Assembly (NCBI GenBank): GCA_951406725.2 | Contig: OX597837.1 | Span: forward strand, 22,630,001 to 22,694,000 | From: Octopus vulgaris | Lineage: Eukaryota | Length of the DNA: 64,000 nucleotides | Reading direction: 5' to 3' | Shown: positions 7,925 through 62,316 of the stretch, piece by piece | How positions within the stretch are numbered: the stretch's first letter is position 1 | Layout of the letters: each line of letters begins with the position of its first letter | Notes under the pieces: model-generated | Database searches by the model: none | Seen by the model: only the letters and a program-made list of their open reading frames with translations | What the model was told of the DNA's origin: nothing | Position numbers and translations under genes: made by a program

Positions 7925-8229
7925 GCATATTCTGTTGTGTCTGGGGAGAGTCATTTTCTTTTTGTGCCTTATAATATAACACACTCACCGGTAAAATTTC
8001 CACTTTTTTTCTTATTTTTATTGTCCTAAAATTTTCGTTGCATCTTAACGGTTGCAAGACGCAACGAAAATTTTAGGACAATAAAAATAAGAAAAAAAAG
8101 TGGAAATTTTACCGGTGAGTGTGTTATATTATAAGGCACAAAAAGAAAATGACTCTCCCCAGACACAACAGAATATGCTTCAACACACAAACTCATAAAG
8201 AATCTTGCAAACCAAATCCAAAAACGAAA
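7925..8229. mobile_element. Long palindrome (~120-bp arms, 7925-8178) plus ~50-bp tail, flanked by a TSD; probably derived from a PLE pseudo-LTR
   Basis: Near-perfect inverted repeat gcatattctgttgtgtctggggagag...ctctccccagacacaacagaatatgc; direct repeat AATAATATTGCA at 7916-7927 and 8230-8241; PLE origin is inference. Confidence 0.75.
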
Positions 8230-9539
8230 AATAATATTGCAGTTATATATTATAATGGATCAGTCATGATTCTCTTAAATTCCAATGAGCAGTAATAAGG
8301 TATGATTTGAAGAAAATTTGGCTACTATATCTAACAAGGTGACCAATCTTGGTTGCCTTTAGCAAGTTGATTGTTAATTACTATCCATATCATAGATGCA
8401 TTAGACCATCTCTTATCTATAGCATCAGTGCATATATACAAGGCCAATTAGAGAATTGTCAACAGGGCCCTCTGCTCTACAAAACCTCTCAAATTGCTTA
8501 ACACTAGTCCTGCATATATGTGTTGCTCACAGACAACCATAAAATCCCAGAGATGCTTATATGTGTACTATTTGCTATGCTGTGAAATTCTCAAGATGCT
8601 TACATGCATCTTTTAACCATCCATATAGGATTTTATAGTTGTAGGTAAGAGATGCTTATATGCATCAGTGGTGTAGATAGTGTTAGAGGCACTTACCAGT
8701 AAGGTCAGTAATTTGTTTGGCATTCAGTAAAAAGAAGGAAGGGAAGTAACCATGATGTTTTGTTTCCTCAGGGCTTCCAAGACGGATTGAGAGAAAAAAA
8801 GTTGTTTACAAGCTCAAAACACAGAGCCAGGACTAACATCACAAGGTATCTTGTATGACATTCTCAACAATTCTGCCTATCTACTGCTCTTTTAAAGTCA
8901 GTGGTGGTAAGTGGTACTTTTTAAAGTCAGTGGTGGTAAGTGAATTACAAAAGAAATTCACAAAGCCCAGGAGAAATTGACTCCAAACTTGAATTTATTT
9001 TATAGTTTTAACCCTTTCGTTACTGAATTTATTTTGAGATGCTCCATATTTCTTTAAATTACTTTAAATATAACAAAGAATTTAGAAAATAACTTAGTTA
9101 TCATTCAGTTAGTGCTAGGAACATAAATTTTGGCTAAGGTTTGGTGGAAGATTTTAATTCAAAACTTATGAAAACAAGACATTTGTACTCAGAGCCAGGG
9201 TTGGTAATGAAGGGGTTAAACTTTTTATTATCAGATTTCTGTTGAGATACACTGACTTTGATTCAAGTGATTTTTAAAATAATGAAGAATTTAGTAAAAT
9301 AATCTGTCATTATGGATTTTAAATTTTGGCACAAGGCCAGCAATTTTTGTGGTGGTGGATAAGTCAACTACATCGATCCCAGTACTCAATGATGAAAGGC
9401 AATATTGTTCTGGGCAGAATTTGAACTCAGAATGGGAAGACAAATGAAATGCTTCTAAGCAATTTTCCCTACCTGTTAACGATTCTGCCAGCTCACCACC
9501 TTAATCTGTGTCATTATTGGAACAAATTAACATGAAATC

Positions 9540-9820
9540 TTAACAGAAGCATTTAATTTAGATCACTAAACGGGAGGTTTGTATCGAAGAACAAGGAGCA
9601 GTCTCAGAGATGTGTTGGTACCAAACAGGGCTGGCAATTTGCTGTGCTTGAGAAGACTTGTCAAGCCAAGTGAAATCATAATTTTTAACAGAAGCATTTA
9701 ATTCAGATCACTTTAAACAGGAGTTTTGTATCAAAGAACAAGGGACAGTCTCAGAGATGGGTTGGTACCAAAAAGGGTTGGCGATTTGCTGTGCTTGAGA
9801 AGACTTGTCAAGCCAAGTGG
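9540..9820. repeat. Tandem duplication (~145 bp x2)
   Basis: ttaacagaagcatttaatt...gagaagacttgtcaagccaagtg occurs at 9540-9672 and 9685-9820; 30-bp duplications also at ~8888-8941 and ~9881-9940. Confidence 0.85.
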
Positions 9821-10339
9821 GGTAGGGAGAGTAAAACTTATAATACCTAACAATTTGACAGCCATAACCCCAATGATAATTTGAAATATATAGGTACATT
9901 TTAGAGAGTTTTGAAATATATAGGTATATTTTAGAGAGTTTTTTTCACAAAAAATCAGAATAATTTCAGTATTTCTGTCTGAAATGTAATGGAAAATAGG
10001 TCAGTTTCAAAACATTGATGTTTAGGTCACAAAACAAAGTTTGAAGGGAATGTTAGTGATTTCCTTTGATTTCTAGATAGAAGCAAATAGGAAATAACAC
10101 TGACCAAAGACAGAAAGAAAGAAAATATTTATAAATTTTGTTACACAATGTAATAAACATGATATATACATAAACATTTTTATAAAAATACATATAAACA
10201 CGTATATAAACATACTTACTGAGAGCGAGAAAGAGAGACGGAGAGAGAGATGTGAACACTACATAGCCCAAACTTTGAACTGTTAACCTTTTCTTTGTAA
10301 AAACACTGTGTGTGTGTGTGTACAAATGAATGCACACAC

Positions 10340-11778
10340 ATCATCATCAGCATCATCATTTTGCGTCCATTTTCCATGCTAGCATGGGTTGGATGGTTCG
10401 ACTGGGGTCTGGGAAGCCAGGAGGCTGCACCAGGCTCCAGTCTGATCTAGCAATGTTTCTACAGCTGGATGCCCTTCCTAGCGCCAACCACTCCGTGAGT
10501 GTAGTGGGTGCTTTTTACGTGCCACCGGCACAGGGGCTAGGTCAGGCTGGCAATGGCCACGTTCGGTTGGTGCTTTTTACGTGCCACCGGCACAGAGGCC
10601 AGTCAAGGCAGTACTGACAACAGCCACGTTCGGATGGATCTTTTTATGTGCCACCGGCACTGGTATCACAACTACAATTTCCATTGATTTTTTGATCGAT
10701 TTTGATTTCACTTGCCTCAACAGGTACTTTGCAAGCAGAGTTTTGTGTCCCAAGGAGGAAAGGTATGCATAAGTGGATTGGCTACATCCCAGGTAAAGGC
10801 CACGGGTTATGGTCTCACTTGTCCTGCCAGGTCTTCTCACGCACAGCATATTTCCAAAGGTCTCGGTCACTAGTCATTGCCTCAGTGAGACCTAATGTTC
10901 AAAGGTTGTGCTTCACCACCTCGTACCAGGTCTTCCTGGGTCTACCTCTTCCACAGGTTCCCTCAACCACTAGGGTGTGGCACTTTTTCACACACCTATC
11001 TTCATCCATTCTCGCCACATGACCATACCATCGCAAACGTCTAGGTCCAACTTTTCTCTCAAGGTACTTACACTCTGTTGAGTATGAACACTGACATTAC
11101 ACATCCATCGGAGCATACTTGCTTCATTTCTTGCGAGCTTACGCATGTCCTCAGTAGTCACAGCCCATGTTTCACTGCCGTGTAGCATGGCTGTTCGTAC
11201 ACGTGCACCATACAGTCTACCTTTTACTCTGAGCTGAGGCCCTTTGTCACCAGCAGAGGTAATAGCTCTCTGAACTTTGCCCAGGCTATTCTTACTCTAG
11301 CAGCTACACTTTCAGCACACCCACCCTCGCTACTGACTTGGTCACCTAGGTAACGGAAGCTATCAACTACTTCTAGTTTTTCTCCCTAGAATGTGGCAGA
11401 AGATGGTCTCTGCACATTTTCAGTGTTTATTGCTCCTGAGCATCTGCCACATACAAAAACTATCTTCCCAGTTAGCCTTCCTTTGATATTACTGCACCTC
11501 TTATGTGTCCATAGCTTACACTGGGTACATCTTATAGAGTTTCTACCTAGGCCTTTTCTACAGATTGAGCAGGGCCGTCTACCTGAAGGCGTTTGTGATT
11601 TGTCTGCCTTCTTACTTACTAGGACTTTGGTTTTAGCTAGGTTGACTCTAAGGCCCTTCGATTCTAATCCTTGCTTCGACACCTGAAACTCCTCCAGTTC
11701 TGATAGTGACTCAGCAATTAGAGCAGGGTCATCAGCATAGAGGAGCTCTCAGGGGCATCCTGTCTTGAATTTCTCTGT
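10340..11778 (-). mobile_element. 5'-truncated RTE LINE (RT with YADD motif, Cys-rich insert, C-terminus, 3' tail)
   Basis: Minus frames GCP*ELLYADD.ALIAESLSEL, GLESKGLRVNLAKTKVLVS, CSICRKG...CTQCKLWTHKRCS, MLHGSETWAVT; (GAT)n tail at ~10340-10360. Confidence 0.9.
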
Positions 11779-11779
11779 T

Positions 11780-11817
<38 letters not shown>

Positions 11818-11957
11818 CACATATATATGTACATTATGTATAAACATAGCATGCATAGCATTTTGACTTTATATATGTGATATGCATTACATATGGATAC
11901 ACATCACATATCCATTGCGCATGCATACAAACTTTTTATGCATATATATTTTTTTTT

Positions 11958-12286: not shown

Positions 12287-12375
12287 TATATATATATATA
12301 ACCAGTGAATAAATTTCACTGAAAATATATATTTACAAAGCGGTTGCAGCCATCTCAGCTAGCAGGACTTACTAC

Positions 12376-12417
12376 CCTGGACTGATGATGGGAAAGACCC
12401 AGAAACATGTCTTCAGG
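12376..12417 (+). ncRNA. Minimal type I hammerhead ribozyme with canonical core
   Basis: cctgga-CTGATGA-tggg aaaga ccca-GAAAC AT GTC-ttcagg; stem I 6 bp (one G-U), stem II 4 bp, palindromic ACATGT stem III; predicted cleavage after GUC at 12411; lies in a ~170-bp element (12300-12468) between (TA)n tracts. Confidence 0.85.
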
Positions 12418-13074
12418 TGCTAATCTTAGCTGGCAGGGGTTATGTTGAGTTGAGAGTATACAACCACTATATATATATATATAGACATACATTCGTACAT
12501 GTATCCACATATGTACATATATGCACATACATTCAAACGTATATGTGCGTATGTATGTATGTATGTATGTACGTACGTATGAATGGTGTGTACGTATGGC
12601 ATTTAATTAGACAAAGCGCTACGTTCTGTTTTGTTTTATCACGATGTACAGTACACATCCTGTGAATGCCCACAGTACGCCATTGTATTCTGCTATTCTG
12701 TATACAGTAACCCCATTTTCAACAGGCATCATGTTATTTACTATAGCAATTGGTCGACTATATTAAAGGGTAATGATGCTACATGTTAGGTATTAAAATA
12801 TTTTCTTAATTTTAACGAAACATTTCTGAGATTATCTCCCTTAGTTCATCATCATCGTTGAACCATAATTTTCAGCGTATAAGACGAACACTCGCGTAAG
12901 ACAAACCCCATTTTCCGTGTAAAATAAGATATTTTGTAGAAAAATAAATTTAATATGCTTCATTATACACTCATTGATAAATCTGCCCGAAATTCTGTCG
13001 TATTAGATGTATGGAAATTTTTTTTGTTACATTTAAGAATTGCGAAAAAAGAACTGTTTTTTGTACACACGCAT

Positions 13075-15500: not shown

Positions 15501-15934
15501 TAGCAGATGATTAAAAAGGGCAGACACAAGAAAGAAAAAAGAAATAAAGGATCACGTTTAAGGCCACTGAATTGTAACAAAAGAACTCTGGTCGAACAAA
15601 AACCTGAAAAATAAATAGTGAACATCAAATAAATAGTGCTTGTGTTTTAATAGGCAAAACCAGCAACACGACCCTCCCATCCAATATGTTTCAAAAGACG
15701 ATAGGCCATACTGGAGCACCGTCTTTTATTTGAATTATTCTTTGGAAGCCTCGTATTTATTCTATCGCCTCTTTTTCTGAACCGCCAAGTTACAGGCGCA
15801 TAATCGCATCAGCATTAGTTATCAAGCGATGGTGGGGTGACATACAGACACACATATACATACATTCGTATGTATATACATGTGTGTATGTGTGCTTGCA
15901 TATGTACCTACCTACCTCTCTCTCTCTCTCTCTG

Positions 15935-15968
<34 letters not shown>

Positions 15969-15971
<3 letters not shown>

Positions 15972-16005
15972 TTCTTTCGTCACACTTGTGTGACCTCATC
16001 AGTGT
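15969..16005 (-). ncRNA. Minimal hammerhead ribozyme motif; 3' strand of stem I replaced by a (TC)n microsatellite
   Basis: Minus strand aca-CTGATGA-g-gtcacac aa gtgtgac-GAAAG AA CTC; intact core and strong stem II, but stem I cannot form properly. Confidence 0.6.
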
Positions 16006-17030: not shown

Positions 17031-17107
17031 ATATATATGTGTATGTGTGTGTGTGTATATATATATATTTTTGTTTCTCTCCTTGTTTCTTTCCTTGTTT
17101 TTTCTGT

Positions 17108-17149
17108 GTCCCTTTCCGTAGAAGAGCGTAGGCTCGAAACGTAAAAGAC
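17108..17149 (+). ncRNA. Hammerhead-like motif with variant core in a short element within (TA)n/(TG)n
   Basis: cttt-CCGTAGA-a-gagc gtag gctc-GAAACGTA-aaag; stems I and II and palindromic ACGT stem III are present; core differs from CUGANGA. Confidence 0.5.
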
Positions 17150-17320
17150 TTCTTCTATTCCTGAGCGTTATACTAATACATCTGTTTGTTTTCTACACCA
17201 CCTGTCTTCGTCTTTTGTTTTTTTTGTAAACTTTCCCCATATATATATATTGAGCTGTATGTGTATATATGTGTGTGTGTGTGTGTATGTGTGTGTGTAT
17301 ATATATATATATATTGAGCT

Positions 17321-19029: not shown

Positions 19030-19660
19030 AATTTTCCAGTAAACCCTTGAAGTGGATACATCTTGAAAACATTTCTTTGCGGCTGTTTAATGCTCCAGGT
19101 TTCTTACAGTCCTTAAGAATTTTGGCTCTTTCTGCAATGCAGATCTTGCAACGGCCACTTTCATTAATATACAGGCCTGGATGATCAATTAATTTCTACC
19201 TGATATCACATGGGGTCCTGGATAGGTCATTATTTCTAGGAGTACTGTTTGAACTGGTGGTAATATACATTGCGGGTCTGGTCACTCTATCTATGGTTTG
19301 TTCATTATCCATGGTGGTATACCGCGGTCTTTGGTGACGCTCTCTGTGATGCTGGTCCTGGACTGGTTTATATCTCTGGGTGTGGCAACTATATTGGCAT
19401 GAGAATTAGTTAATCTACTTATAATATTGCTGTTTGATGGTACATTACTGTTAATGTGGACATCAGGTCTAGGTATCACCATAGCCGCATAGATGACCCT
19501 TTCAGACTTGCATTGGTCTCCTACTGGACAGTTATTATATACCCTGCAAGAGCAACCTGCCTCTTCCCTTGTATTGTAGGTACTTGCTAAAATGTTTTTT
19601 ATGTTAGGTGCACAACTAAAGGAGACTCTTAGGTTATGTCTGTTAAATAAATGCCTGTAT
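19030..19660 (-). mobile_element. Degenerate Penelope-like element ORF C-terminus (linker and GIY-YIG endonuclease region)
   Basis: Minus frame LFNRHNLRVSFSCAPNIKNILAS...CSCRVYNNCPVGDQCKSERVIYAAMV, then after frameshifts SGRCKICIAEK and ILKDCKKPGALNSRKEMFSRCIH; fits PLE motifs SYSCxPN, CxC-CP-C-VIY, CxxC-EK and LN-R-E-SKC-H. Confidence 0.75.
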
Positions 19661-19851
19661 CTATCTATGTGTGTGTGTGTGTATATTTATGTATGTGCAT
19701 CTTTGTTTGTCCCCTGCCATTTCTTGACAACCAATATTAGTGAGTTTATGTCCCCATAACTTAGTGGTTTGGTAAAAGAGACTGATAGAATGAGTACTAG
19801 GCTTACAAAGAATAAGTCCTGGGGGTCGATTTCTTCAACTAGAACCCTTAA

Positions 19852-22927: not shown

Positions 22928-23087
22928 TATATATAAATATATATGTGCATATATATATATTTTAAGAAATATTGTTAAATGTTTTTTGATTATTTATAGC
23001 TAATACACGTATTTTTATATATTTATTTGATAATTAGTATAAGTTAAGATAAGTACATTTATTCTATTACTATTTATTTATTATTTT

Positions 23088-23204
23088 AGACCTGATGAGT
23101 GACTATATTTTTAAATAGAATTAATTTTAGATCGATCTAATTTTAAATCGAATTGATTTTATTATTATCTATTTGAAAATATAGCCATGAAACGTGCGTA
23201 GTCT
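23088..23204 (+). ncRNA. Type I hammerhead ribozyme with intact core and ~90-nt stem II domain, in an AT-rich element (~22960-23340) beside (TA)n
   Basis: agac-CTGATGA(23092-23098)-gtgactatatttttaaataga...tctatttgaaaatatagccat-GAAAC(23189-23193) gtgc GTA(23198-23200)-gtct; basal stem II ~21 bp; a 5'-half copy lies at ~24975-25065. Confidence 0.75.
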
Positions 23205-25729
23205 TTTTACTACTATTTACTATTTATTGTACTTTATTGATTTTTAGAATAAGGTTTTTATAGTATATGTTTTCTATATGGTGTGAATAACATCTTTCAT
23301 TATTCATTTATTTAATAGAGGTTTTTCTCTAAATCATATACATATAACTATAGTCTGCCGACGGGACTGTGGTTTAACTGGAATATTGTGGACTGTAAAA
23401 GAAAAATCCATACAAATCAACATGAGCAAAAAGAAAAAAAATAATAAAATGATGAGGAAGACAAGAAAAAGGCTACAGTGAGCATCTAAGTCAACAATAA
23501 GGTTTTTATTGACCATCAGTTTCTACAGCTTTGTACAGAGTTTTCCATCACAACTATCACAACTAGGACGATCTGGCTACTATTAGACCGGAGAAATATG
23601 CCGCCTACAGTTGAGGGCTGGGTGGGTGGCTGGGGAGAGGGATGGGGGGTTTTGGGGAGAAAAAGAGAGAGAGAGAAGTGGGGGATGGGAGGATGAGAGA
23701 GTGAGAGAAAGGGGGCAAGGGGGCGGGGAAAGGGCAGAACTCGGAAGAGCTGACAGCTGACTGGCCGGCCTGCACGCTAGCCACTAGCATGACAACTCGC
23801 AACACACGTGCAAGCTGTAAGCACACACTATACATGCATTTTGGTCTCCTCCACCATATCTGCAGCAGGGAATGGAATTTTAAAGGCAAGAGGGAGGAAA
23901 AAATATTAACCTGATGCTAGAATTTGCAGAAGAATTTTTAATTTATTTATTTATTAATTTATTTATACATTTTTTTTGCAAGGACCTTGATTTTATGACT
24001 GGGTATGCAATGAGGAAGGGTGCTATTGAAGAATTTGTCATTTTTTTTTTTTTCCAAAAAAATTTTTTTTCCATTTTGGTTTGATTTATTGAGCTAAAGA
24101 TGTATTAATCATTGGTGGAAGAATTAGCAGATGGTGTGGTATACAACATGCATGCAGCCAGCCAAAATAATCAAGGTATTGGTAGGAAGTCAGTTGCCTT
24201 ACAGATATAGCACAAAACAGTAATGAGAGTGAAACAAGGTAACAAATTAAACGTTGGCCTCTGTAGATCTTTCATCATTGCAGTGAGGCCAGGAGGTACA
24301 TGATATGTGAAGTTAAAAATAGTTAAGCCAGAGGCTAAAAAAAATTAAAAAAAAAAACACTTGGTAGGAATGTTGCAAGAAAATAGAAAACGTTCGTGCA
24401 TAGGATTGCATGACTGCAGTGCACAAGATATTATGGCATCCGTTGCATCTGGAGATCAAACAAGTTGAAGTTAATAACCAAAACTGTTATTGTAGAATTT
24501 TTTCTTTTTTCTTTTTTTTTTTTTTGCATGTAGCAAGTTCCTTGTTTAATTATATGTGCGTATGTATGAGATATTTACACAGGAGGTGCATGCATGTATG
24601 TGTAACAGTTTAGTATTGTGTATATGCTATAGGCCAATATTTATTGTCTGTGGGTTTTGTTTTTGTTTTATTTTTGTTTGGTGTGTAGGTGTGTTAAATA
24701 ATAATAATAATAATAATAATATTAATAGTAATGACAGTAATGATAGTGTATGCAGATGTGTAAAATATTGGACTGAGTTGAGGAAAAAAATATTAAGGCT
24801 TGTGTTATGGTCCCAGCACTTGTGATTAAATAATATATGTATATGATAATGAGCATTTTGTTTTTCTATCTTTATACTATTAATAACTATCTTCCTGACA
24901 GTCTTGCATTGAATTTGTATTGCTTTGTAATGTAAAGTTTAAGGGATAACATAAAATGATCATTATTATAGTATTATTATTATTTATTATTTTAGACCTG
25001 ATGAGTGACTATATTTTTAAATAGAATTTTAGATCGATTTAATTTTAAATATAATTGATTTATTATTATTATCATCATCATTATTATTGTAAGACTTATA
25101 CAACTTGGTAGGTAGTGTTTGGTAGCTGCTAATTAATTTGTGTAATGTGATGCATGTGAGATTTAAATCTCTAAATAGAAATAGGAAAAAAAATTAAAAC
25201 CTCCCCAAAAATCTACTTAGCAAAACTCTTGTTATTGTAATTCTGTATTAAATAGGATTTTTGAAGTGACAAAGCCTATCTCTCATTGGATAAATATATC
25301 TGCTCTGGTAAACATTCTGTTACAATGGTTCTAAGTAATCCTATCAGCTAATTTTTTTTTTTTGGGGGGGTGTCCTAAAACTAGTTTCTTTTGATTTTTA
25401 ATAATGTCAACTTTGAGATGATACAAATGTGTATGTTTATTTATATGCACATGTGTAGTTTCTGTGAAATTCAGTGTGAACACTACTGTCCTGTACTGTC
25501 CTCAATGTATTTCTGAACCCTCAGTGGTTAAAAAACACTATTATTATTATCATTATTATTACTGCTCATTTCACAAGATTTACCAACACTAAATCTGTTT
25601 ACTGAGTGTGTGTATGTGTGTGTAAATGATAAAAAGGGAGGCAGTTGGAGGTATAAGTTTGACAAATGAAAATTACAGCTGATTTATGTTAATTATAATT
25701 TAGGTTTATAGAGTGACTTACGTCAACAA

Positions 25730-27700: not shown

Positions 27701-27734
<34 letters not shown>

Positions 27735-27738
<4 letters not shown>

Positions 27739-27940
27739 TATTATAGCTGAGAAAATCTTCACAGACTGTTACCCAGAGTTTCATGTTACCTTTTGTCAGA
27801 GAGTTGTGATCACAACTGTCGGACAATCACAAAACTCTGAGTAACAGTCTGTGATGATTTTTCCTGCTTTAATAAAAAGCATATTACTCTACCTTTGGTA
27901 TTTGAGTACTATGTTTTCTACCTTGCTTTGCATTTGTGTG
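27735..27940. mobile_element. Palindrome (27735-27878) plus tail element carrying degenerate hammerhead motifs; probably derived from a PLE pseudo-LTR
   Basis: Inverted arms around gttgtgatcacaac; minus strand reads actct-CTGACAA-aaggtaacat-GAAAC tctgg GTA-acagt; embedded in (TA)n/(TG)n. Confidence 0.55.
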
Positions 27941-28315
27941 CTTGCTTGTGTGTGTGTGTGTGTGTATGTGTGTATGTATATATATATATATACACACACA
28001 CACATACATGTACATATACACACCCACATATATTGTTCATGTTGTAAGAGTTTTGTAGAAACCTTGAGAGAATATGAAATAAATTGTTTTTTTGGAATGG
28101 TGGAGCTTGAAGCAAATGAAGCTATAAATAATAACATGTAAAATCCTTTCCTATCCATAGGGCTTTTTAACCCAATATTTACACTGCAATTATTCATAGC
28201 GTTATTTGCTTCAATATCCACTGTTCCAAAAACCAATTATATATGTGTGTGTGTTTGAGTGTATATTATATATATATATCACATTATAATTCAAATATTT
28301 CATATATGTGTATGT

Positions 28316-33837: not shown

Positions 33838-33975
33838 CTAAAATTGGTACCATTTCTTGTCTTTATATTTCAACATCAATTGATGGGCTACCTGAGAATA
33901 GCTCTCAGCTTGTGCAGTCATCTGTTGTGTCCGGTCATCCAGGCCTTCCAGTTTCTCTCCACGTTCATGGAACAA
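33838..33975 (-). CDS. STXBP5: Tomosyn terminal coding exon (R-SNARE motif)
   Basis: LFHERGEKLEGLDDRTQQMTAQAESYSQVAHQLMLKYKDKKWYQF*; acceptor ttttttgtAG; 138 bp, phase 0; KYKDKKWYQF is the tomosyn C-terminal signature. Confidence 0.97.
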   Translation of the reverse strand: MFHERGEKLEGLDDRTQQMTAQAESYSQVAHQLMLKYKDKKWYQF

Positions 33976-34091: not shown

Positions 34092-35164
34092 TAAGGCGGC
34101 GAACTGGCAGAAACGTTAGCATGCCGGGCGAAATGCTTAGCGGTATTTTGTCTGCCGCTATGTAAGGCGGCGAACTGGCAGAAACGTTAGCATGCCGGGC
34201 GAAGTGCTTAGTGGTATTTTGTCTGCTGCTACGTAAGGCGGCAAACTGGCAGAAACGTTAGCATGCCGGGCGAAATGCTTAGCGGTATTTTGTCTGCCGC
34301 TACGTAAGGCGGCAAACTGGCAGAAACGTTAGCATGCCAGGCGAAATGCTTAGCAGTATTTTGTCTGCCGCTACGTAAGGCAGCAAACTGGCAGAAACGT
34401 TAGCATGCCGGGCGAAATGCTTAGCGGTATTTTGTCTGCCGCTATGTAAGGCGGCGTACTGGCAGAAACGTTAGCATGCCAGGCGAAATGCTTATCGGTA
34501 TTTTGTCTGCCGCTACGTAAGGCGGCAAACTGGCAGAAACGTTAGCATGCCAGGCAAAATGCTTATCGGTATTTTGTCTGCCGCTATGTAAAGCGGCGAA
34601 TTGGCAGAAACGTTAGCATGCTGGGCGAAATGCTTAGCGGTATTTTGTCTGCCGCTACGTAAGGCGGCAAACTGGCAGAAACGTTAGCATGCCGGGTGAA
34701 ATGCTTAGCGGTATTTTGTTTGCTGCTACGTAAGGCGGCAAACTGGCAGAAACGTTAGCATGCCGGGCGAAATGCTTAGCGGTATTTTGTCTGCCGCTAC
34801 ATAAGGCGGCAAACTGGCAGAAACGTTAGCATGCCGGGCGAAATGCTTATTGGTATTTTGTCTGCTGCTACGTAAGGCGGCAAACTGGCAGAAACGTTAG
34901 CATGCCGGGCGAAATGCTTAGCGGTATTTTGTCTGCCGCTACGTAAGGCGGCAAACTGGCAGAAACGTTAGCACGCTGGGCGAAATGCTTATCGGTATTT
35001 TGTCTGCTACTATGTTCTGAGTTCAAATTCCTCCGAGGTCGACTTTGCCTTTCATCCTTTCGGGGTCGATTAAATAAGTACCAGTTACGCACTTAATCTG
35101 TTTGTCTGTCCTTGTTTGTCCCCTCTGTGTTTAGCCCCTTGTGGGTAGTAAAGAAATAGGTATT
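34092..35164 (+). repeat. SINE family 3 whose 71-bp head is tandemly amplified 13 times
   Basis: Unit taaggcggcaaactggcagaaacgttagcatgccgggcgaaatgcttagcggtattttgtctgccgctacg starts at 34092+71n (n=0..12), followed by one SINE body; TSD AGGTATTATATAGGTAATT at 34074-34092 and 35158-35176. Confidence 0.93.
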
Positions 35165-35600: not shown

Positions 35601-35640
35601 TACAATTATGGAAATATTATTTGCAGAGTTATTGTATAGC

Positions 35641-36018
35641 AAAAGAAGCTTGAGAGGCGGTTGGATGGAACCTACACTCGCCTCCTTATGAGAGCTCAAA
35701 ATCTCTCGTGGAAGTGCCATCCAACCAAAATGCAAATATATGGGAAGCTACCACCTGTGTCATCTCTTGTGAAAGGTAGGAGAGTCCAGTTTGCTGGATA
35801 TTGTTGTAGAGCTGAAAAAGAAGTAATTTCTACTCTTCTCCTCTGGAAGCCATCTACTCGCAATACCAAAGGGCGCACACTCTCCTACCCTGATGTAATC
35901 TCCAGGGATACAGGCATCCAGCAACAGGACCTCCGTAATGCTATGATGGACCGTGAAGTCTGGCGTAACATAGTAAATTCCATTGTCTCAACCACGGTCG
36001 AACATTGATGATGATGAT
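35641..36018 (+). mobile_element. 3' end of a second RTE-like LINE family with (GAT)n tail
   Basis: LDGTYTRLLMRAQNLSW...RRVQFAGYCCR...AMMDREVWR then tgatgatgatgat. Confidence 0.8.
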
Positions 36019-37155: not shown

Positions 37156-37907
37156 ATCAAAACCACTCACGAGGCTTTGGTTGGCCCAGGGCTATAGCAG
37201 AAGATACCTGCCCAAGGTGTCACAGGGGGACTGGATCCAGAACCATGTAGTTGAAAGCAAACTTCTCACCACACCTGACCCTTTTTTGTCCAACATAATT
37301 TTTAATCAAAACCACTCACGAGGCTTTGGTTGACCCAGGGCTATGGCAGAAGATACCTGCCCAAGGTGTCACAGGGGGACTGGATCCAGAACCATGTAGT
37401 TGAAAGCAAACTTCTCACCACACCTGACCCTTTTTTGTCCAACATAATTTTTAATCAAAACCACTCACGTGGCTTTGGTTGACCCAGGGCTATGGCAGAA
37501 GATACCTGCCCAAGGTGTCACAGGGGGACTGGATCCAGAACCATGTAGTTGAAAGCAAAGTTCTCACCACACCTGACCCTTTTTTGTCCACCATAACTTT
37601 TAATCAAAACCACTCACGAGGCTTTGGTTGACCCAGGGCTATGGCAGAAGATACCTGCCCAAGGTGTCACAGGGGGACTGGATCCAGAACCATGTAGTTG
37701 AAAGCAAAGTTCTCACCACACCTGACCCTATTTTGTCCATCATAACTTTTAATCAAAACCACTCACGAGGCTTTGGTTGACCCAGGGCTATGGCAGAAGA
37801 TACCTGCCCAAGGTGTCACAGGGGGACTGGATCCAGAACCATGTAGTTGAAAGCAAACTTCTCACCACACCTGACCCTTTTTTGTCCATCATAATTTTTA
37901 TATCAAA
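37156..37907. repeat. 5 x 149-bp tandem array made of an old SINE 5' end plus flank
   Basis: Units start atcaaaaccactcac at 37156, 37305, 37454, 37603 and 37752; ATCAAA recurs at 37902. Confidence 0.93.
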
Positions 37908-40830: not shown

Positions 40831-41733
40831 CTGGAACTTATTTAATCAAAGTTTGAAGAATGAGAGACTAAGGTTATGCAGGTGACATTTGAACTTAGCT
40901 GTGTGCTAGACTGCATAACTTGCAGCATTTGGTTGCATGTATAGTGACATCACTTTGACTACTGATATTTTAATTCCTTCTCGTCATGTGTGTAGTTTTG
41001 ACCAATCAGAGATGAGTAATCTATGAAGCCTAATCTCCCTATAAACACATGTGCAAAAACTTTACTCATCCTTTTGTTTTGGGGTTGACAGCATTTATTT
41101 GACACAAGCAAGTCTTCCCCAGTTTCTAACATTTTATCTGACAGCAATCACATGTCAGGGTTTATTTTGCTCACATTAGTTCTCTTGATAACAGTTAATT
41201 TTTATCTCAGCACAACCTCAACATTAGTTTAACCATTAACTGTATAACATTTAATTAAACTAGCCACATCCAGCCAAATATTCTGTTTTATGCTCAAGCT
41301 GTCGAGATCTAGCCTCTTACACCTACCCTACAATGTAATTCTAAAAATATACAATTACACCATCAAAATCTCAAAGCCATGAGAAAAAGTATAATTAATT
41401 TGACACAATGGGAATATTAAATTTAACAGAATAATCTGAATGCTAAAGGGTTAAACACACACACATGCACACACACTCACTTGACTGACTTTTCTTCATA
41501 TGTTAACCATATATTTATTTGCAAGCATTGAAATAGCAATGCAAATAATTACATTGGCAAGAAAACATGAAAATATCTCTGTACATTGTCCATAACATTT
41601 CGACAACATCCATTATCTAAATGACTTATCGATGAACATGCCCACACTTTTATGTTTAAACTTCTATGGTTGCAAATAAATATATAGAATTTTCCATGTT
41701 TGTATTCAATATTTAACCTGTACTCTTAAACCA

Positions 41734-42095
41734 TTCGAGCTTTGGTGTTGGAGAAGACTTTTACGGATTCCATGGACAGCGAGGCTCACCAATGGAGAAG
41801 TTCTTAAGCAGATCAGGCTGAAAATGTCACTAGAAGCTAGGATCACCAAGCATAGATTGGCATATTTCGGTCATGTTATGCGGAGAAAATCCCTGGAGAA
41901 GGACATCATGCTCGGAATGGTCAGTGGCAAGAGAGGAAGAGGCCGACCAAGAACCCGCTGGCTTGACACCATCAAGAGTGATACTGGAATGGACATAGCC
42001 AATCTAAAAGAAGCAGCCCAGGATAGAACTGACTGGAGGACAATGATCCAACGGGTAACTGAGAGTCAACTTTGACTGAGCGGATACATAGATAG
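41734..42095 (+). mobile_element. 5'-truncated RTE (BovB-like) LINE with TSD
   Basis: FELWCWRRLLRIPWTAR...RLAYFGHVMRRKSLEKDIMLG...GRGRPRTRWLD; TSD ACTCTTAAACCA at 41722-41733 and 42096-42107. Confidence 0.9.
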
Positions 42096-45120: not shown

Positions 45121-45869
45121 CTGTGGGAATATAGAAAAGAAAAAAGAAAAAGAAAGAGAAACAGCAATGTAGTTATTTCATATTAAAAATGAAAGAATTC
45201 TTCTTTGGTGTGAAGTTAATGGAAAGTAAGTAAAGTAGGCAGGAGAGAATGCAGGTATTTTATTTAGTCATATTGACCCTGGTGAGATTTGAACTCAGAA
45301 TACAGAAATCCAGAGCAAATACTTCCTATACCATAGTCTAATAACCCTTCCAATTTAACACTGCTTGTATATTGTGTGTGAGGTTCATAGATGTTATCTC
45401 TGGATGAATACCACAGTAGATTGCCTTTCAACAATGTGTATACATCAAGTATAATACATAAATGATTATTTAAATTTAATACTGCTCCTATTGCATATAA
45501 TGGATTTCTATTCAGTGGGACAGCTATTTGCAATATCAGTGAAAGTTTATTCCCTATTTCCTATATATTGGAGGTGACGAATCCCACTTATGTATGTGAC
45601 TCTCTGTGAGTATATGACGCTGACAAGGCCCAACAAAGCTGAAATGCATTTGGTGTTCTTGCTAGTTGCTGCTGAGGTTATTTTCATCTCCCTCTGGTAT
45701 ATTTTGTATTTTTAAACTTGGCATGTCCATAAGAGATATTATTTGTACAGTATTAATGTATTTACATGAAATATGGTACATAAATAGCTATAAAATTTTT
45801 ATTTTGTTATAATTTTCCTCTGATATATTTGTGAATATACAGCCATGATGTGTCAGCAGAAAGAATGAA

Positions 45870-46070: not shown

Positions 46071-46085
46071 GAACTCAGAACTTAC

Positions 46086-46194
46086 CTTATCTCAGTGAGA
46101 GGCTGGAATGGTGCGTCCATTAAAGGTTTCAGACTGGGTAAACTGAAGGTTACGATGCGACCATTTGCAACATAACATGCAAGACAGACACTAT
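46086..46194 (-). CDS. STXBP5: Tomosyn exon
   Basis: (D)SVCLACYVANGRIVTFSLPSLKPLMDAPFQPLTEI; AG/GTAAGT; 109 bp, phase 1 to 2. Confidence 0.96.
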
Positions 46195-46211
46195 CTGTAA
46201 GAGGCAGAAGT

Positions 46212-52522: not shown

Positions 52523-52796
52523 CTGAAATTGCATAAATCAAACATTTAATATCATATATATATATAGGCAAATCAAAAATAAAAATAGAAACAGCAAAAG
52601 TCAAAGAGATGTACACAGTGAATGCATTAGATTGATGCTCAGTTTAAGATGGAAAAAAGAGTGGATGTGTAATGTACACACACACACACACACAAGCGTA
52701 CCTCAACTTACATCAGAAATTGGTTCCAAGACATGTAACTTGACTCAGAAAATGATAGAGCATGAAAAGTCATATCTTAAAACTTATTAGCTTATA

Positions 52797-54052
52797 GAGA
52801 TGTACTTGCATAGCAAGTGATTTGATCTGAGATCGTGTGCTGAAACGAAAACAATTTCAGTGTGGAAGGTGTTTGTAAGCCATTTAAGAAACACACAAAA
52901 GCCGTTCGATTCACTTCAACATTTAAGTTTAATTTGTCAAAATATTTTCCTCACTTTAAGACCGCGACAGCACAGATTTTTGTCAGTGAGCAGGTCGTGG
53001 TCTTAAAGCGACAAAAATATTTTGACAAATTAAACTTAAATGTTGAAGTGAATCGAACGGCTTTTGTGTGTTTCTTAACCCTTTCGTTACTATATTTCTG
53101 ACCAAAATACACCCCTCATGAGTTTCAATTAAATTCTAAAATAATCATAAATCTAGGCTTGTTTCATTAAATAACTAACTTTTTTACTTATCAACATATT
53201 AATGTGATATTTGGAACATAATTAAAGAAAGGGTTCTTAATCAATTCTATTGCATAACTTTTGTCTCAAAGTGACTTTAATTACAGGTAAATCCAGGTAA
53301 ATTGAGCAAAAGGAAAAAAATATAAAAATTTTAAATTGAGCGAAAGGTAAAAATATTAAAATTTTGTTTAAACATCACCATAGAAAATGAATCATCAGCT
53401 AATATTCAAATGGGTATGCAACAAAATTTTGATAAAGAAGAATTGTGCACATCACTATATCATCAGTGAAATTTAATGCACAACAGGTGTACCATAAAGG
53501 TGGAATAAAGTGAAATACTGGAATCCACCGTAAGTTTGACCGAACTAAAGAAATCAGTCAAAAAATAATATATGGCCCTGGTTATGGTATGGAAGTGATA
53601 AATTCCAGACCACATTGTTCCCTAGGCCATGCTGACTAACATTAGTTTCCCTGTATAAAAACTAAATCCACAACAGTACCCAGTATTTGTTTCACAAATT
53701 TTCCAATTCGGAATCAATGCTTGATAACATGAAACTCCTATCTATTTTCAAAGTTGAAGAAAAATCGATGCCGAAAAAAATGTGGAAAAAAATCTCCCAA
53801 AATTCAGGGAATTAAAATTACACGTCGATCTTTGTACAAAACTGTAGATGAACTGTTTACGAAGCATAATCACGTGTTTTCATGATTGTACTAAAGAGAT
53901 TTGCTCTGATATTCTCATTTAAATATGAATAGGTAAATTCGGGTGGGTTTGGGCGGTTTGGTCACATTAACCAAAATTTTTTTCGGGTGGCTTTGGGCGG
54001 TTTGGTAACGAAAGGGTTAAATGGCTTACAAACACCTTCCACACTGCAATTG
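52797..54052. mobile_element. Tail-plus-palindrome element (~115-bp arms) with TSD, split by a piggyBac-type insertion
   Basis: Left arm cagtgtggaaggtgtttgtaagcc... matches the right arm (to 53078, resuming 54021-54050); TSD TATTAGCTTATA at 52785-52796 and 54053-54064. Confidence 0.8.
53079..54016. mobile_element. 938-bp non-autonomous piggyBac-type element
   Basis: TTAA at 53075-53078 and 54017-54020; TIR CCCTTTCGTTAC; subterminal gggtgg..ttgggcggtttggt repeats. Confidence 0.9.
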
Positions 54053-54863
54053 TATTAGCTTATATTTTGTTTAATAAATGGTTTCTTCTTTTATTCTTTT
54101 ACGTATCGTAGTCATTTGACCGCAGCCATACTGGAGCATTGCCTTGAAGGGTTTTAGTCGAACAAATTGACCCCAGTACTTATTTTGTTTTTATGCCTGG
54201 TCCTTCTTCTATCAGTCTCTTCTGCAGAACTGAGCAGTAGTGGGGGAACAAACATGGTCTAGATTACACACATTAAAATAACTCGAATTATGACACCCTT
54301 TCAACGAAATATAAAGCACCAGCGAAAATCAAACCTTGTGATACTGGCTTTCCTTAGTAAATACAAATCAAGTTTAGACAAGGATGACTTTCTTAAATTT
54401 TTTGCATTGCTGTAGATAGCAGCTGTATTAAATAAATGTAACTTGATTTTATTATTTCGTGTAGTGAATTTTCTTGAAAGATGTAATCAAATTTTATAAA
54501 CAGTACAGTTTTTAGAGTTCTATTCAGTACCCCCAGCTATCAAGATAGCCCTCACTAATTGCAATTGGCTGGCTATGTGCCTAGGTCTAGATTACACACA
54601 CATTAAAATAAAATTATGTGTAAACCAATTTTTGATTCTTGACACATTTTGGTGATAAAAATATTAACATTTCCAATTTATTTGAAATAATTCTAGTTTT
54701 TAAAGGAGTTGTACTTGCAGCAGGAAATGCCAAATAAATGCTTTGTTGCATTATTTTTAAACACATTATACTTTGTTTGAAATGATGGCACATTTTTTCT
54801 ACTTTTCACAGATTTCAGTAATGCTTGGTACTTTAAAATTAAAAATTTTCAGTTAAACTGAAT

Positions 54864-56525: not shown

Positions 56526-56548
56526 AATACACATACACACATATATCA

Positions 56549-56592
<44 letters not shown>

Positions 56593-56874: not shown

Positions 56875-56905
<31 letters not shown>

Positions 56906-56946
56906 CATCATCATCATCAGAATCTAAAATTTGCAATACAAGCTGT

Positions 56947-57148
56947 AAGCAATTTATGTCTTTATGTCGTGACGTGAACAACACTGGAAGTGTTTGGGTG
57001 CATTGAACTTTGTAGTAAAAAAATTGCTTGAAAAAGTTATTTAAAGCAAATTTATGTCTTTATAGTCGTGACGTGAACAACACTGGAAGTGTTTGGGTGC
57101 ATTGAACTTTGTAGTAAAAAAATTGCTTGAAAAAGCTATTTAAAGCAA
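56947..57148. repeat. Tandem duplication (~98 bp x2)
   Basis: tttatgtctttat(a)gtcgtgacgtgaacaacactggaag... occurs twice, bounded by AAGCAA. Confidence 0.9.
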
Positions 57149-59265
57149 CAAAACATATACAAAGCTAAAAATAATAGCATGTAAATACTGAGTTGAATAT
57201 AACCCTTTTGGATAGTAAAAAAAACCAAGGGCTACTTTTGGCTTTGGATACTATTTATTTATCTGTAGCTTAATGAGATGGCAAGTTGGCAGAATTGTTA
57301 GCACACCAGGCAAAACGCTTAGAGGCATTTTGTCTGTCTTTACATTCTGAGTTCACATTCTGCCGCAGTTGACTTTGCCTTTCATCGTTTTGGGGTTGAT
57401 AAAGTAAGTACCAGTTGAATGTTGGGGTCAGTAAAGTAATTACCAGTTGAATGCTGAGGCTGACAACGTAAGTACCAGTTGAATGTTGGGGAGTCAATAA
57501 AATAAGTACTAGTCGAACACTGGGTTGATAAAATAAGTACCAGATGAATGCTGGGATTGACTTACCCCTCCCCTAAAATTGCTGGTCTTGTGCCAAAATT
57601 TGAAACCAATATTTATAGCCTTATGTGTGCTTCAAGATCCACTGTTACAAAAAGGAATTATTTCACATTCTTTCAAAGTTTACAAATTCTTATGACATCA
57701 ACAAAATTCAAAGCAATATCTAAAACACTACTATCTATATGAAGACATTTGTAAATGGCCTAACTCTGCAATCATCATCATCATCATCATCATCGTTTAA
57801 CGTCCGCTTTCCATGCTAGCATGGGTTGGATGATTTTGACTGAGGGCTAGCGAATCAGATGGCTGCACCAGGCTCCAATCTTGATCTGGCAGAGTTTCTA
57901 CAGCTGGATGCCCTTCCTAACGCCAACCACTCCGAGAGTGTAGTGGGTGCTTTTTACGTGCCACTGGTATAGGAGCCAGTTAGGCAATGACCTCGCTCGA
58001 ATCTTTTTACACATGCCACCGGCACAGGTACCAGTAAGGCGACGTTGGTAACGATCACGCTCGAATGGTGCCCTTTTATGTGCCACCGGCATGGAAGCCA
58101 GTTGGCTGCTCTGGCAACGATCACGCTTGGATGGTGATCTTGGTACCCTACTAGCATGGGTACAAGTGCCAGTAAGGCGACACTGGTAATGATCACACTC
58201 GAATGGTGCCCTTTTATGTGCCACTGGCACAGAAGCCGGTTAGCTGATCTGTCAACGATCACACTCGTATGGTGCTCTTAGCAACCCGCTAGCACGGATG
58301 CCAGTCATCGAATTTGATTTTGATTTCACTTGCCTCAACAGTTCTTCGCAAGCAGAGTTTAGTGACCAAAGAAGGAAAAGGTACGCATAAGCGGGCTAGT
58401 TACGCTCCTGGCAATGATGACCTATATTCATTTAGATAGGCCGGTTATTTCTAGTTTCACCGGACTTTAATATGGAGTTTTCCAGCTGCAGCTACATCAA
58501 TGAGGAATTTAGCTGAGCATCTTTCCTGGTAAACCACAAATATGACCTAAGTGCCATTAGACATAGAAAGTTTGTTGAGGTAAGCTTTAGCTGTAAGATT
58601 GAGAAGGTTGAAGAATTATGAGGAATCATAGGGATGACAATTCAACTGAGCAGAAACAATTTTGGTCATGAAATTAAAAAGATAATGATTACATAGCATA
58701 GATTATATCATGCAAATTTGGTTTGAATCATCATCATCATCATCATGAACATTTAAGCATTTAACATGCTGGCATGGGTTGGACAGCTTGACAGAAACTG
58801 TTAAGGCCAAGGGCTGCGCCAGGTTCCAGAGTGTGTGTTAGTTTGGTTGCCCTTCCTAATGCCAGCCACTTTACAGTGTACTGGGTGATTTTTACCTGGC
58901 ACCATCACCAGCACTTTTTATGTGGCTTTTTACTTAGCACCAGAACCAGTGCTTTTCATGTGGAACCAACACCAGGGCTTTTTACTTAGCAACACCACCA
59001 CCAGAGCTTTTAATGTGACACCAGCACCAGTGCTTTTTATGTGGCACCAGCACTTTTTACATTGCACCAGCACCAGCACATTTTATGTGGCACCAACACC
59101 AGTGCTTTTTACATGGTACCAGTACCTACACCAATGCTTTTTATGCGGCACCTTGGTTTTAGGATCTCAATTCTGTTGTAGTGGTTGGGTCTTCTTGGGT
59201 ATAGTTTGAAAATTGCAGAAATTCTCACAAATATTTATGAGATATTGGTACCAAGTTATACTTAC

Positions 59266-59397
59266 TTTGTGCTTCTCTTGGATCTATTTTCAACTTTGAC
59301 TTATCTTCCCATTGAACGGAGGCATCGGGAACTAAAACACCATTGCAATCCAAAAACGACATGGTAAGAATGGCACCTTTTAGCCTGAATATGGTAC
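59266..59397 (-). CDS. STXBP5: Tomosyn exon
   Basis: (G)TIFRLKGAILTMSFLDCNGVLVPDASVQWEDKSKLKIDPREAQ; AG/GTAAGT; 132 bp, phase 1 to 1. Confidence 0.96.
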
Positions 59398-59906
59398 CTG
59401 CAAAAAACCCAGAAACACTCTTTTATTGAAGTTTGCTGTCTTTTAATGTCAATATGTATATGTGTGTGTATATGTCTATATATCTCTGTATGTATATGTA
59501 TATTTTTTTAACTAAACCTTGTCACATTTTAAAAAATTATTTCTAGTCGTATTTTTTACTAAGCCTGAACGATCCTGAAACACGGTGTCCCTAGATGCAG
59601 TTCCGGCAGCCGGGGGTGTTTGTCTCCCCTTCGTATATGTATATAAGGACACGGAAAAATGTGTCAAAGCCATCAGGAGGAGTTCGATGCTTCCTAGGGC
59701 TATACAGCGGTGGTGTACCCCCTACTGCCACGTTCTTGTTAGATTGACAGTATACAACCATTCTATCGCCCCACCACCGTACATGTCTCTATGAGAGATT
59801 TAGAAATTCAATATTTCTTGTTATTTTGTTATTTGGTTATACACAGAAAACAGTCATGGAAGTTTTAAAAACAGAGGCTTGAAATAGTTAATAAAAGAAA
59901 ACTCAC

Positions 59907-60026
59907 CACTTGGGGATACAATGACAGGCTGGAAATTTCTTTGTTCTTGCGAAGGAAGATTAAGTACAATGACTAAGACGGATCCTAAACTGGTGCCGAC
60001 CCATAAACAAGGACAGGTGTAACTAT
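59907..60026 (-). CDS. STXBP5: Tomosyn exon
   Basis: (D)SYTCPCLWVGTSLGSVLVIVLNLPSQEQRNFQPVIVSPS; AG/GTGAGT; 120 bp, phase 1 to 1. Confidence 0.96.
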
Positions 60027-60149
60027 CTGACAATTGGAAACAAAGAAAAAAACTGCTTATACAAGAGTTATTTTACAGTTTGTTATAAGGCATTGTGAGT
60101 ATGGGTATGTACACACATACATACACACAAATATAAATACATATATTTA

Positions 60150-60725
60150 TTATTTCTTTATTGCCCACAAGGGGCTAAACATAGAGGGGACAAACAAGGA
60201 CAGACAAAGGGATTAAGTCGATTAGATCGACTCCAGTGCGTAACTGGATGAAAGGCAAAGTTGACCTCAGTGGAATTTGAACTCAGAACATAGCGGCAGA
60301 CGAAATACCTATTTCTTTACTACCCACAAGGGGCTAAACACAGAGAGGACAAACAAGGACAGACAAACGAATTAAGTCGATTATATCGACCCCAGTGCAT
60401 AACTGGTACTTATTTAATCGACCCCAAAAGGATGAAAGGCAAAGTCGACCTCGGCGGAATTTGAACTCAGAACGTAACAGGAGACGAAATACCTATTTCT
60501 TTATTACCCACAAGGGGCTAAACACAGAGGGGACAAACAAGGACAGACATAGGTATTAAGTCGATTACATTGACCCCAGTGCGTAACTGGTACTTAATTT
60601 ATCAACCCCGAAAGGATGAAAGGCAAAGTTGACCTCGGCGGAATTTGAACTCACAACGTAATGCAGACGAAATACCGCTAAGCATTTCGCCCAGCGTGCT
60701 AACGTTTCTGCCAGCTCGCCGCCTT
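60150..60725 (-). mobile_element. Head-to-tail trimer of SINE family 3
   Basis: One head and three bodies; junctions at aatacc 60304-60309 and 60488-60493; probable TSD ATACATATATTT at 60137-60148 and 60729-60740. Confidence 0.88.
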
Positions 60726-62230
60726 ACTATACATATATTTGTATGCATATACATACACACACATTTAACATCTGGTTTTCACGCTGGCATGACTTGGATA
60801 GTTTGACAATCTGATAAGCCACAGAGCTGCATTATGCTCCATATCAGATTTGGCGTGATTCCTTCAGCTGGATGCTCTTCCTAATGCCAACTACTTTATA
60901 GTGTGTACTTAGTGCATTTTTCATGCCACTAGCATTACACATACGTGTATAGTAAATATTCTGTGTACAGTTAGATGAATGACTGCTACTGTTGATTTTA
61001 GATCTCCACACACAATATCATCATCCAGTATTATGGGTCCGTTCAGTTGTCTTAACAAAGTATGGTGATAGCTCTCTGCTACTAGGGGTCAGCTTTTTGT
61101 TTGTGAATGCAGTGAATAAAAATGAAATGAAAACACTTGCGGGAGAAATTCAAAGGGGAATTCATCAAGAGTTATGTCCTGTGCTTAAAAAGCTTGAGTG
61201 CCTTTAGAGTGTGAGGAATAAGTGCCTGGGAAGTTTTCTGTTCATGCCCACATGAAAGAAAATATCATTAACATCATTTCACATCCATTGTCCATGCTGA
61301 CAAGCTGAGGTGCTGTACAAGACTCCAGTCCTATTTGGCATGGTTTCTACAGCTGGATGCCCTTCCTAACACCAAACACTTTACAAAGTGTGCTGAGTGC
61401 TCTTATGTGGTGCGCTATGAGCACTTTTATGCGGCGCTGCAAGGGCACTTTTACATGGCACTGCACAGGTGCTTTATGTGGTGTTGCATAAGCGCTTTTA
61501 TGCACATGTACTTTTACATGATTCCACACGGGTGCTTTTACATGGCACCACATGGATGATTTTATGTGGCACTTCCATGATTGCTTTACACCACCAGAAG
61601 AACCGGTTTTAACACTTCTGCTGCAGCATATGGGTCTGAAGTGTTAAGACCAGTCCTTCTGAATATCTGTAGACTGCACCTTGATAAACATTAGGGCTTC
61701 CACCATCAGTACTTGTCACCATCACTGTTTGAGAGTTCAGCACAATGTTTACCACACCTAACTTTACAAATACATACAAATACACATACATATTCACATT
61801 TGATTTTAAGACCTGAACTCCTCACCATTTCCTCCTCCCACACCCCCATCTCCTGCATACACATCGATCCTACACAAGCTGCAGCCCCACTTTGCAAGCA
61901 GTAACCCCTTCACACTGTGGAGGCACTCTGACTTTTGTGCAAGGGACATAACTTTTAATGAAATCCACCTCAGAAGTCTCCCACGAGTGTTTTCATTTTG
62001 TTTTTATTCACAACACACATACAAACCAGATGTGACACTTCCTGATCTCCAGTAGTAGAGAGCCATTGTGATACTTTTCATATTAGATCCTCTGATGAAT
62101 ATTGCCTTATGCTCTTCCCTAACTCATGTGCGAAACTCATTGTAAAATCAGCTGAAATGGAGCTATAATATAGAATAAATATTAATATACTCACTTTATT
62201 TGCTTGTTTTTTTTCTCATATATATATATA

Positions 62231-62316
62231 TTGGCTGATGAGTGCTCAGCATTTTAAAACTGTTGTAATACTTACAACATTTAATAAGATGATGTAGTAC
62301 AAAACGATCGTACTAA
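62231..62316 (+). ncRNA. Type I hammerhead with long stem II and one core mutation (GAAAC to AAAAC), between (TA)n tracts
   Basis: ttgg-CTGATGA-gtgct...tgttgtaa tac ttacaaca...agtac-AAAAC gatc GTA-ctaa; palindromic ACGATCGT stem III. Confidence 0.65.

Follow-up and report, generated by a model that had tools for sequence, protein, structure and literature searches.

Type I hammerhead ribozymes with a short palindromic stem III are known from the pseudo-long terminal repeats (pseudo-LTRs) of metazoan Penelope-like elements (PLEs). These minimal motifs occur as solo copies, can carry an extra base or a U3-A8 core pair, and show low activity even as dimers (PMC4209133; this and the other papers cited here are compared from excerpts). 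In the anole Poseidon element PAc, insertion in vitro did not require cleavage, and read ends at the cut site were absent (PMC11167929). The Hydra clade of PLEs includes an octopus member, Hydra-1_Obim, which is listed without a pseudo-LTR, and Hydra hammerheads are called canonical (PMC8557442). Non-LTR retrozymes are units of 170 to 400 nt without an open reading frame (ORF) that contain one type I hammerhead (PMC7229834). Natural variants of the hammerhead core have been reported as rare single cases, which include U3-A8 covariation and an A6C change that cleaves slowly (PMC3088659). A 2026 octopus repeat annotation describes Penelope-like expansions, with no ribozymes in its main text (PMC13282606), and we found no report of ribozymes in octopus in the literature searched. 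Here, we describe hammerhead motifs in a 64,000-nt stretch of the Octopus vulgaris genome (GenBank assembly GCA_951406725.2, 2.8 Gb, contig OX597837.1, positions 22,630,001 to 22,694,000 of the forward strand), called the window below and numbered from its first letter.

The hammerhead sites of the window are in all probability short copies of hammerhead-bearing PLE 3' ends (pseudo-LTRs), and four large families of these motifs have fixed non-standard cores for which weak dimer cleavage is predicted. The swarm is a real by-product of PLEs and was to be expected, since minimal hammerheads in Penelope-like repeats are already known; the fixed core variants are the new part. Twelve sites in the window were assigned to ten repeat families (A to J), and a further family is represented by a full-length element elsewhere in the genome (L246). 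What looks like mutation of the core is, in several cases, a fixed trait of the family rather than decay, a point that the preliminary description of the window had overlooked.

Core states were determined with patterns that left positions open; matches were counted over the whole genome, and the states were tallied by eye in the first 100 places listed for each family. Family E has 6,656 genome matches (control, 1), with G3-C8 in 94 of the listed places and C3-G8 in none. Family B, with 16,562 matches, has C3 in 99, U6 in 96, and G8 in 96 places, while position 7 is A in 24, C in 21, G in 11, and U in 44; this sole free core position is the one that is free in all hammerheads. U3-A8 was found in 90 and C3-A8 in 8 of the places listed for family F (1,817 matches), and C4 in 98 of those listed for the L246 family (3,495 matches). 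Altogether, 28,530 exact matches over the four families fail the standard core consensus. As these families depart from the standard core at positions 3 to 9, we class them as variants and not as canonical members, whereas the standard core letters (3 to 9 and 12 to 15) are present at the family level in A, C, D, G, and J. Families G, F, and E, which are related, carry three different Watson-Crick 3-8 pairs (C-G, U-A, and G-C, respectively). Together with the free position 7 of family B, this suggests that the fold of the active site has been under selection in the source elements, and the variant cores are predicted to keep weak, dimer-dependent self-cleavage. In family E contigs from four sequencing runs labelled as four other organisms, a weak comparison because the runs were picked by shared words, no variant at or above 5% was seen in the 5' strand of stem I or in the core; loop II, CpG sites, and downstream sequence had variants, as did one position in stem I, where a wobble pair is kept.

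The U3-A8 variant of family F is also seen in Schistosoma, and families B, E, F, and G share with the metazoan PLE hammerheads an extra base between positions 9 and 10.1 (PMC4209133). The 56 aligned examples in supplementary figure S3 of that paper, however, include no cephalopod and no G3-C8, U6, or C4. A position-6 change and U3-A8 covariation also occur among the natural variants excerpted from PMC3088659, but G3-C8 and U6 do not, and those single cases differ from octopus variants fixed in families of thousands. In the excerpts at hand, G3-C8 appears only as an engineered change (PMC8495972, PMC3884650, and PMC11167929); the C3G/G8C double mutant is partly active (PMC11167929 and PMC8495972), and what is an engineered mutant in PAc is the natural family state in family E. 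Neither natural G3-C8 nor, among the 15 of 69 matches listed, natural A6U (U6) was reported in the literature searched, which covers few subscription papers. We propose tentatively that G3-C8, and possibly U6, motifs work as dimer ribozymes and have become fixed in families with thousands of copies, that three 3-8 pairs have been sampled, and that standard searches miss more than 28,000 motifs.

The sites in the window, with the two features that give them context, are as follows.
7928 to 8229, no single strand: insertion of family F (a U3-A8 family) with an inverted pair at 8023-8079, neither arm of which has the 5' core.
12299 to 12466, plus strand: family A copy flanked by (TA)n tracts, 5'-truncated and with an internal deletion.
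12376 to 12417, plus strand: family A hammerhead of the minimal type I, canonical and intact; stem I is 6 bp, stem II 4 bp, and the palindromic stem III 6 nt.
15967 to 16002, minus strand: family G half copy, C3-G8, with an extra purine after position 9.
17056 to 17262, plus strand: family B copy in (TA)n; its motif (17108-17149) has the U6 core of the family and a private change at position 4.
19030 to 19686, minus strand: broken PLE endonuclease relic with Hydra-clade motifs (a CxCX5C linker, and CxxC and CxH near the end).
23025 to 23282, plus strand: family C copy with a hammerhead at 23088-23204, core intact.
24961 to 25079, plus strand: family C copy (around 24994), 5' half only.
27705 to 27960, no single strand: inverted pair of family D motifs, one on the minus strand (27766-27803) and one on the plus strand (27816-27847), each with a decayed core.
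33841 to 63467, minus strand: last ten coding exons of tomosyn (STXBP5), with the stop at 33841 and exons reaching at least 197 kb beyond the window.
45536 to 45744, plus strand: old family H copy with G8A and a decayed stem I, antisense in a tomosyn intron.
52796 to 54052, no single strand: family E insertion, an inverted long copy and a direct copy with a later DNA element (53075-54020) between them.
52979 to 53029, plus strand: family E hammerhead motif, G3-C8, with a 7-bp stem I, a 5-bp stem II, a 6-nt palindromic stem III, and U17.
59559 to 59780, plus strand: older relative of family A from which the hammerhead is deleted (motif remnant at 59559-59594).
62015 to 62200, plus strand: old family I copy, core letters kept (62090-62144), stems decayed.
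62225 to 62383, plus strand: young family J copy in (TA)n, motif at 62231-62316.

Ten DNA queries against the genome showed that every site searched is a copy of a dispersed repeat family. The first-look candidate counts were 739 for A (12376), 1,954 for B (17108), 1,454 for C (23088), 2,129 for D (27765), 314 for E (52982), 1,757 for F (8051), 603 for G (15969), 95 for H (45616), 27 for I (62086), and 1,766 for J (62231). The view that type I hammerheads from many families are present is thus borne out, and hammerhead-derived motifs or remnants stand at all coordinates where the preliminary description had put them. Its swarm of minimal ribozymes shrinks, however: of the 12 sites, just 2 hold a hammerhead that is both intact and canonical, and the remainder are decayed, truncated, or variant copies. 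One of the two, 23088-23204, is not minimal, as it has a 90-nt stem II arm and a 4-bp stem I. The families were also described as unrelated, which does not hold for 59559-59594, a deleted relative of the 12376 family. Among the others, 15967-16002 retains core and stem II but has lost the 3' strand of stem I to the microsatellite, 52979-53029 has a private G12A on top of the family G3-C8 core, and 62231-62316 combines an 8-nt palindromic stem III and a 59-nt stem II arm with G12A. The sites at 45616 and 62090 belong to old families (70 to 88% identity) with decayed stems. A second, older remnant related to family G, with a decayed core, lies at 15511-15596 and is common to the duplicated segment around 15969. 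Insertion mostly into (TA)n had been claimed; the targets are indeed TA rich, and the (TA)n context is clear at 6 of 12 sites (12376, 15969, 17108, 23088, 27765, and 62231), but those at 8051 and 52982 lie in non-repeat DNA with target duplications of 12 bp (7916-7927 and 8230-8241) and 11 bp (52785-52795 and 54053-54063), respectively. The density of 12 sites in the 64-kb window, against about 10 recognizable insertions in the next 200 kb, is partly due to the families having been seeded from the window.

A canonical type I descriptor gave three matches in the window and none in 10 of 10 dinucleotide shuffles, so the motif density is above that of shuffled sequence. The matches at 12382 and 23092 are genuine hammerheads, the only places in the window where the standard core and the stems occur together; the third, at 6797, looks like an AT-rich chance match and was rejected. 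With one core mismatch allowed, there were seven matches (shuffle mean, 2.1). A strict scan of 264 kb gave 7 matches versus 0.7 in shuffles. The same scan of 469,200 bases of flanks of other loci gave, with A6, 13 C3-G8 matches (3 of which originate in a single duplicated segment), 2 G3-C8 matches, and 1 C3-A8 match; there were a further 7 C3-G8 matches with U6 and 4 other matches. In the corresponding shuffles, no class with A6 exceeded 0.4, and the total without A6 was 2.4. The flanks also contain at least five additional canonical hammerhead families that are absent from the window (L015, L025, L086, L099, L133, and L170). Among the 150 of 185 Rfam matches in the window that were listed, no hammerhead family appeared; those matches were microRNA-like hairpin noise.

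Descriptor scans, folds, and pair counts in family A support stems I and II with a three-way junction and ends in stem I. Folding recovered stems I and II for families A, B, C, E, F, and J; the active dimer was not obtained for most families by energy-only folding. Stem I is bulged in B and F, and the stem III palindrome is perfect in A, B, E, F, J, and some C copies and imperfect in D, G, and L246. The stem II arms of families C and J, at 59 to 90 nt, are unlike the motifs excerpted from PMC4209133. In 24 copies of family A, 90.7% of the cells were paired, and there were 7 double-sided changes versus 2.5 in shuffles (0 of 500 as high), a control that is inflated by the relatedness of the copies. 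Stem covariation in family A takes the form of a compensatory stem II change in 6 of the 24 copies, and this one inherited change accounts for 6 of the 7 double-sided cells. A 4-nt insertion that extends the stem III palindrome, and leaves it palindromic, is present in 11 of the 24.

Upstream sequence was traced for seven families (A, B, C, E, F, G, and J), and six of them (all but A) continue into a reverse-transcriptase (RT)/GIY-YIG frame, which sustains the Penelope-like origin proposed in the preliminary description. In family E, a frame of 530 residues that has RT motifs as well as a GIY-YIG domain lies about 1 kb upstream of the motif, and one locus of the family (L298) has a single frame with RT that carries a GIY-YIG domain at its C terminus (Pfam PF01541, above cutoff). 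Frames lie upstream at 6 of 25 loci in family F, 1 of 10 in G, 7 of 25 in B, and 3 of 18 in C, and in family J, 3 of 20 loci share upstream sequence that runs into a frame end. Because the tracing reaches frames, the short copies of these six families are read as 5'-truncated ends of coding elements. The frames of G, F, and E are related (41 to 54% identity; E and F are 48 to 49% identical over the endonuclease region, G and E 41%); we take E, F, and G to be Nematis-like and B to be Neptune-like. Two spaced family E pairs (L299 and L300) were rejected as local duplications without a frame. Beside a long copy of family E, there is another nearly intact Penelope-like frame (L296:427-2865; 500 and 312 residues, one stop). 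In family B, the sequence at 17056-17115 has a long pyrimidine tract directly 5' of stem I that could be a splice acceptor; the intron of Drosophila virilis Penelope has an end at helix I (PMC4209133). The octopus copies also resemble the PLE hammerheads of that paper in being mostly solo copies tied to truncated elements, with opposite-strand pairs and many unrelated families in one genome.

The PLE endonuclease relic noted earlier is present at 19030-19686; only the linker and the terminal Hydra motifs are seen in it. A search with a relative of this relic led to L246 (G000:C5:4981500-4988500), a full-length element whose open frame has 717 residues and whose direct repeats, 292 bp long, contain a hammerhead; it has two TA-adjacent ends, as in other families. 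In this one frame, RT is followed by a GIY-YIG domain at the C terminus; the protein of L246 has RWK, DKT, CxCX5C, and CxxC/CxH motifs, and its targets are (TA)n. Since Pfam gave nothing significant in the window relic, in the RT piece of its relative, or in L246, the clade labels rest on motifs. A Neptune label for L246 and the relic was discarded against the description of the Hydra clade (PMC8557442). L246 is, by its motifs and (TA)n targets, a Hydra-clade PLE; its motifs, unit of less than 3 kb, and targets match the clade, and families C and J end in similar frames. It differs from the excerpted description in that the octopus element has repeats and its young family has C4 (PMC8557442). 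Arrays with a period of about 2.58 kb at G000:C1:57208911-57222521 suggest recent tandem insertion of an L246-type element.

Insertion anatomy was examined in family E at 30 places in genome order, which represent 27 insertions, three of the places being partner arms. The 3' ends are fixed at two places, about 90 and 150 nt downstream of the predicted cleavage site (long in 16 and short in 14 of 30). TA repeats adjoin 21 of 30, 21 of 30 have an inverted 5' copy, and all 30 end within 19 nt of stem I (an ungapped estimate); target duplications of 9 to 13 bp are visible in several insertions. In the likely mechanism, the enzyme of the element nicks TA-rich DNA, and reverse transcription begins just 3' of the ribozyme and stops soon after it has passed through the uncut motif. 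By analogy with the anole element, initiation may be internal, at two sites, with uncleaved RNA as the template; PAc likewise has two RT start sites 3' of its hammerhead, an optional tail, and an uncleaved template, its tail being 30 to 40 nt and that of family E about 60 nt (PMC11167929). By the fold rules, a lone copy would cleave poorly, since its stem III, a short palindrome, depends on a partner.

Several points weigh against our account. The cleavage activity of the octopus motifs is a prediction, and activity may not be the conserved thing, as cleavage is dispensable and read ends at the cut site are missing in the anole element. U6 may be weak or dead, because natural A6C cuts slowly. 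The family A covariation rests on about one event, and the first stem II pair is unpaired in 18 of the 24 copies. Families D, H, and I are outside the set traced to a frame, and for E, F, G, and B, whose longest frames are partial, a full-length element that has both repeats was not found. Finally, the pattern used for the 5' ends in family E demanded the 5' core, so that, by construction, any copy that begins at the cut site was left out.

One alternative, somewhat doubtful and yet to be taken seriously, is that the variant cores (U6, C4, and perhaps G3-C8) are catalytically dead or nearly so and that the fold is kept for another role, such as binding of the protein of the element or placement of the RT start. 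The in vitro result with the anole element fits this, as do the uncut motif kept in the copies, the unpaired intermediate that a C3-G8 to G3-C8 route requires, and the presence of C4 in the youngest element seen, where three older copies from the tomosyn region include one with U4. Such an explanation has difficulty with the Watson-Crick 3-8 pair in three related families and with variation in family B only at position 7, both of which are active-core constraints, and with the partial activity of the engineered double mutant.

A second explanation, an unlikely one and refuted as a general account, follows the preliminary description in taking the sites for dedicated mini-elements that lack an ORF, resemble non-LTR retrozymes, and are mobilized in trans by PLEs. 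Short copies predominate in all families. However, six of the seven traced families run upstream into a coding frame and are PLE 3' ends; family E was dropped as a dedicated short element, since its long copies reach such a frame. Only the 12376 family is an ORF-less unit. In family A, the sequence after the 3' tail is the same as that before the hammerhead, with a period of 348 to 355 nt in 6 of 21 oriented copies, and the 3' tail of the family itself stands upstream of the motif in 18 of 23 copies. The unit of about 350 nt with a single type I hammerhead fits the retrozyme range, but the copies seen have less than two units, Penelope-like ends, and no long arrays (compared with PMC7229834). 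No tandem array of two or more units was found in the 21 oriented copies, which were picked by likeness to the window copy; the longest direct repeat was 197 nt. Family A was likely copied from circular or multimeric RNA by a helper element.

Selection by the host that removes or disables hammerheads sense to genes, also proposed earlier, is very unlikely. Over 230 kb of tomosyn introns, 7 unpaired copies are antisense and 3 sense, which agrees with it in direction (one-sided P = 0.17), and there are four inverted pairs, one of which has an intact sense copy. AT-rich or tail-only matches at 23207, 24103, 53989, 205752, and 205896, with another six at 220615-222280, were excluded from this count, whereas 59570 and 62092 were added to it. 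Outside the window, antisense and sense are equal among the unpaired copies, at 3 each, and the strict scan is passed by one intact sense copy (position 178897 of the joined region). The best-preserved copies were said to be antisense to the genes, but all five antisense tomosyn-intron copies in the window are damaged. Tomosyn itself was recognized from a 42-residue piece at 46085-46210, whose best match is syntaxin-binding protein 5 (tomosyn) of an octopus. The copies at 8 to 28 kb lie between the tomosyn stop codon and the start, near 6475, of a ZXDC-like frame on the minus strand, which is a statement of position and not of transcript membership.

A chance origin of the G3-C8 and U6 motifs, as hairpins in the tails of repeats without descent from hammerheads, is scarcely credible: although the listed Rfam matches include no hammerhead and the cores fail the standard consensus, the motifs show the complete topology (stems of 7 and 5 bp plus a palindrome), are placed downstream of the frame as are the canonical motifs of related families, and stand out against shuffle controls.

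Further features of the window and its surroundings were noted. A large low-complexity first coding exon of the ZXDC-like zinc-finger gene occupies 4412-6475 on the minus strand, and at 4008-4087 there is a near-perfect, GC-rich palindrome whose 40-nt arms meet without a spacer. The tomosyn introns contain tandem arrays at 34092-35007 (71 bp, 12.9 copies) and 37156-37907 (149 bp, 5 copies), and a 333-bp array of six copies at G000:C24 around 22850600-22852400. The element at 53075-54020 inside the family E copy is non-coding and about 945 bp long; its terminal inverted repeats are short, and the target duplication is of four bases; we assume it to be a piggyBac-type miniature inverted-repeat transposable element. 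The segments 10696-11748, 35640-36008, and 41680-42075 read like RT ends of long interspersed nuclear elements and are presumably such.

Should they cut, the four abundant families with altered cores would count as new ribozyme variants from nature. The natural G3-C8 family, together with its U3-A8 and C3-G8 relatives, is a ready test set, and it touches an open question, namely, whether movement of the element requires that these ribozymes cleave. If the variants cut, the accepted core consensus and the genome-wide counts based on it are too narrow. If they do not, the most successful families have spread without catalysis and yet keep the active-site pair, which would point to a structural role.

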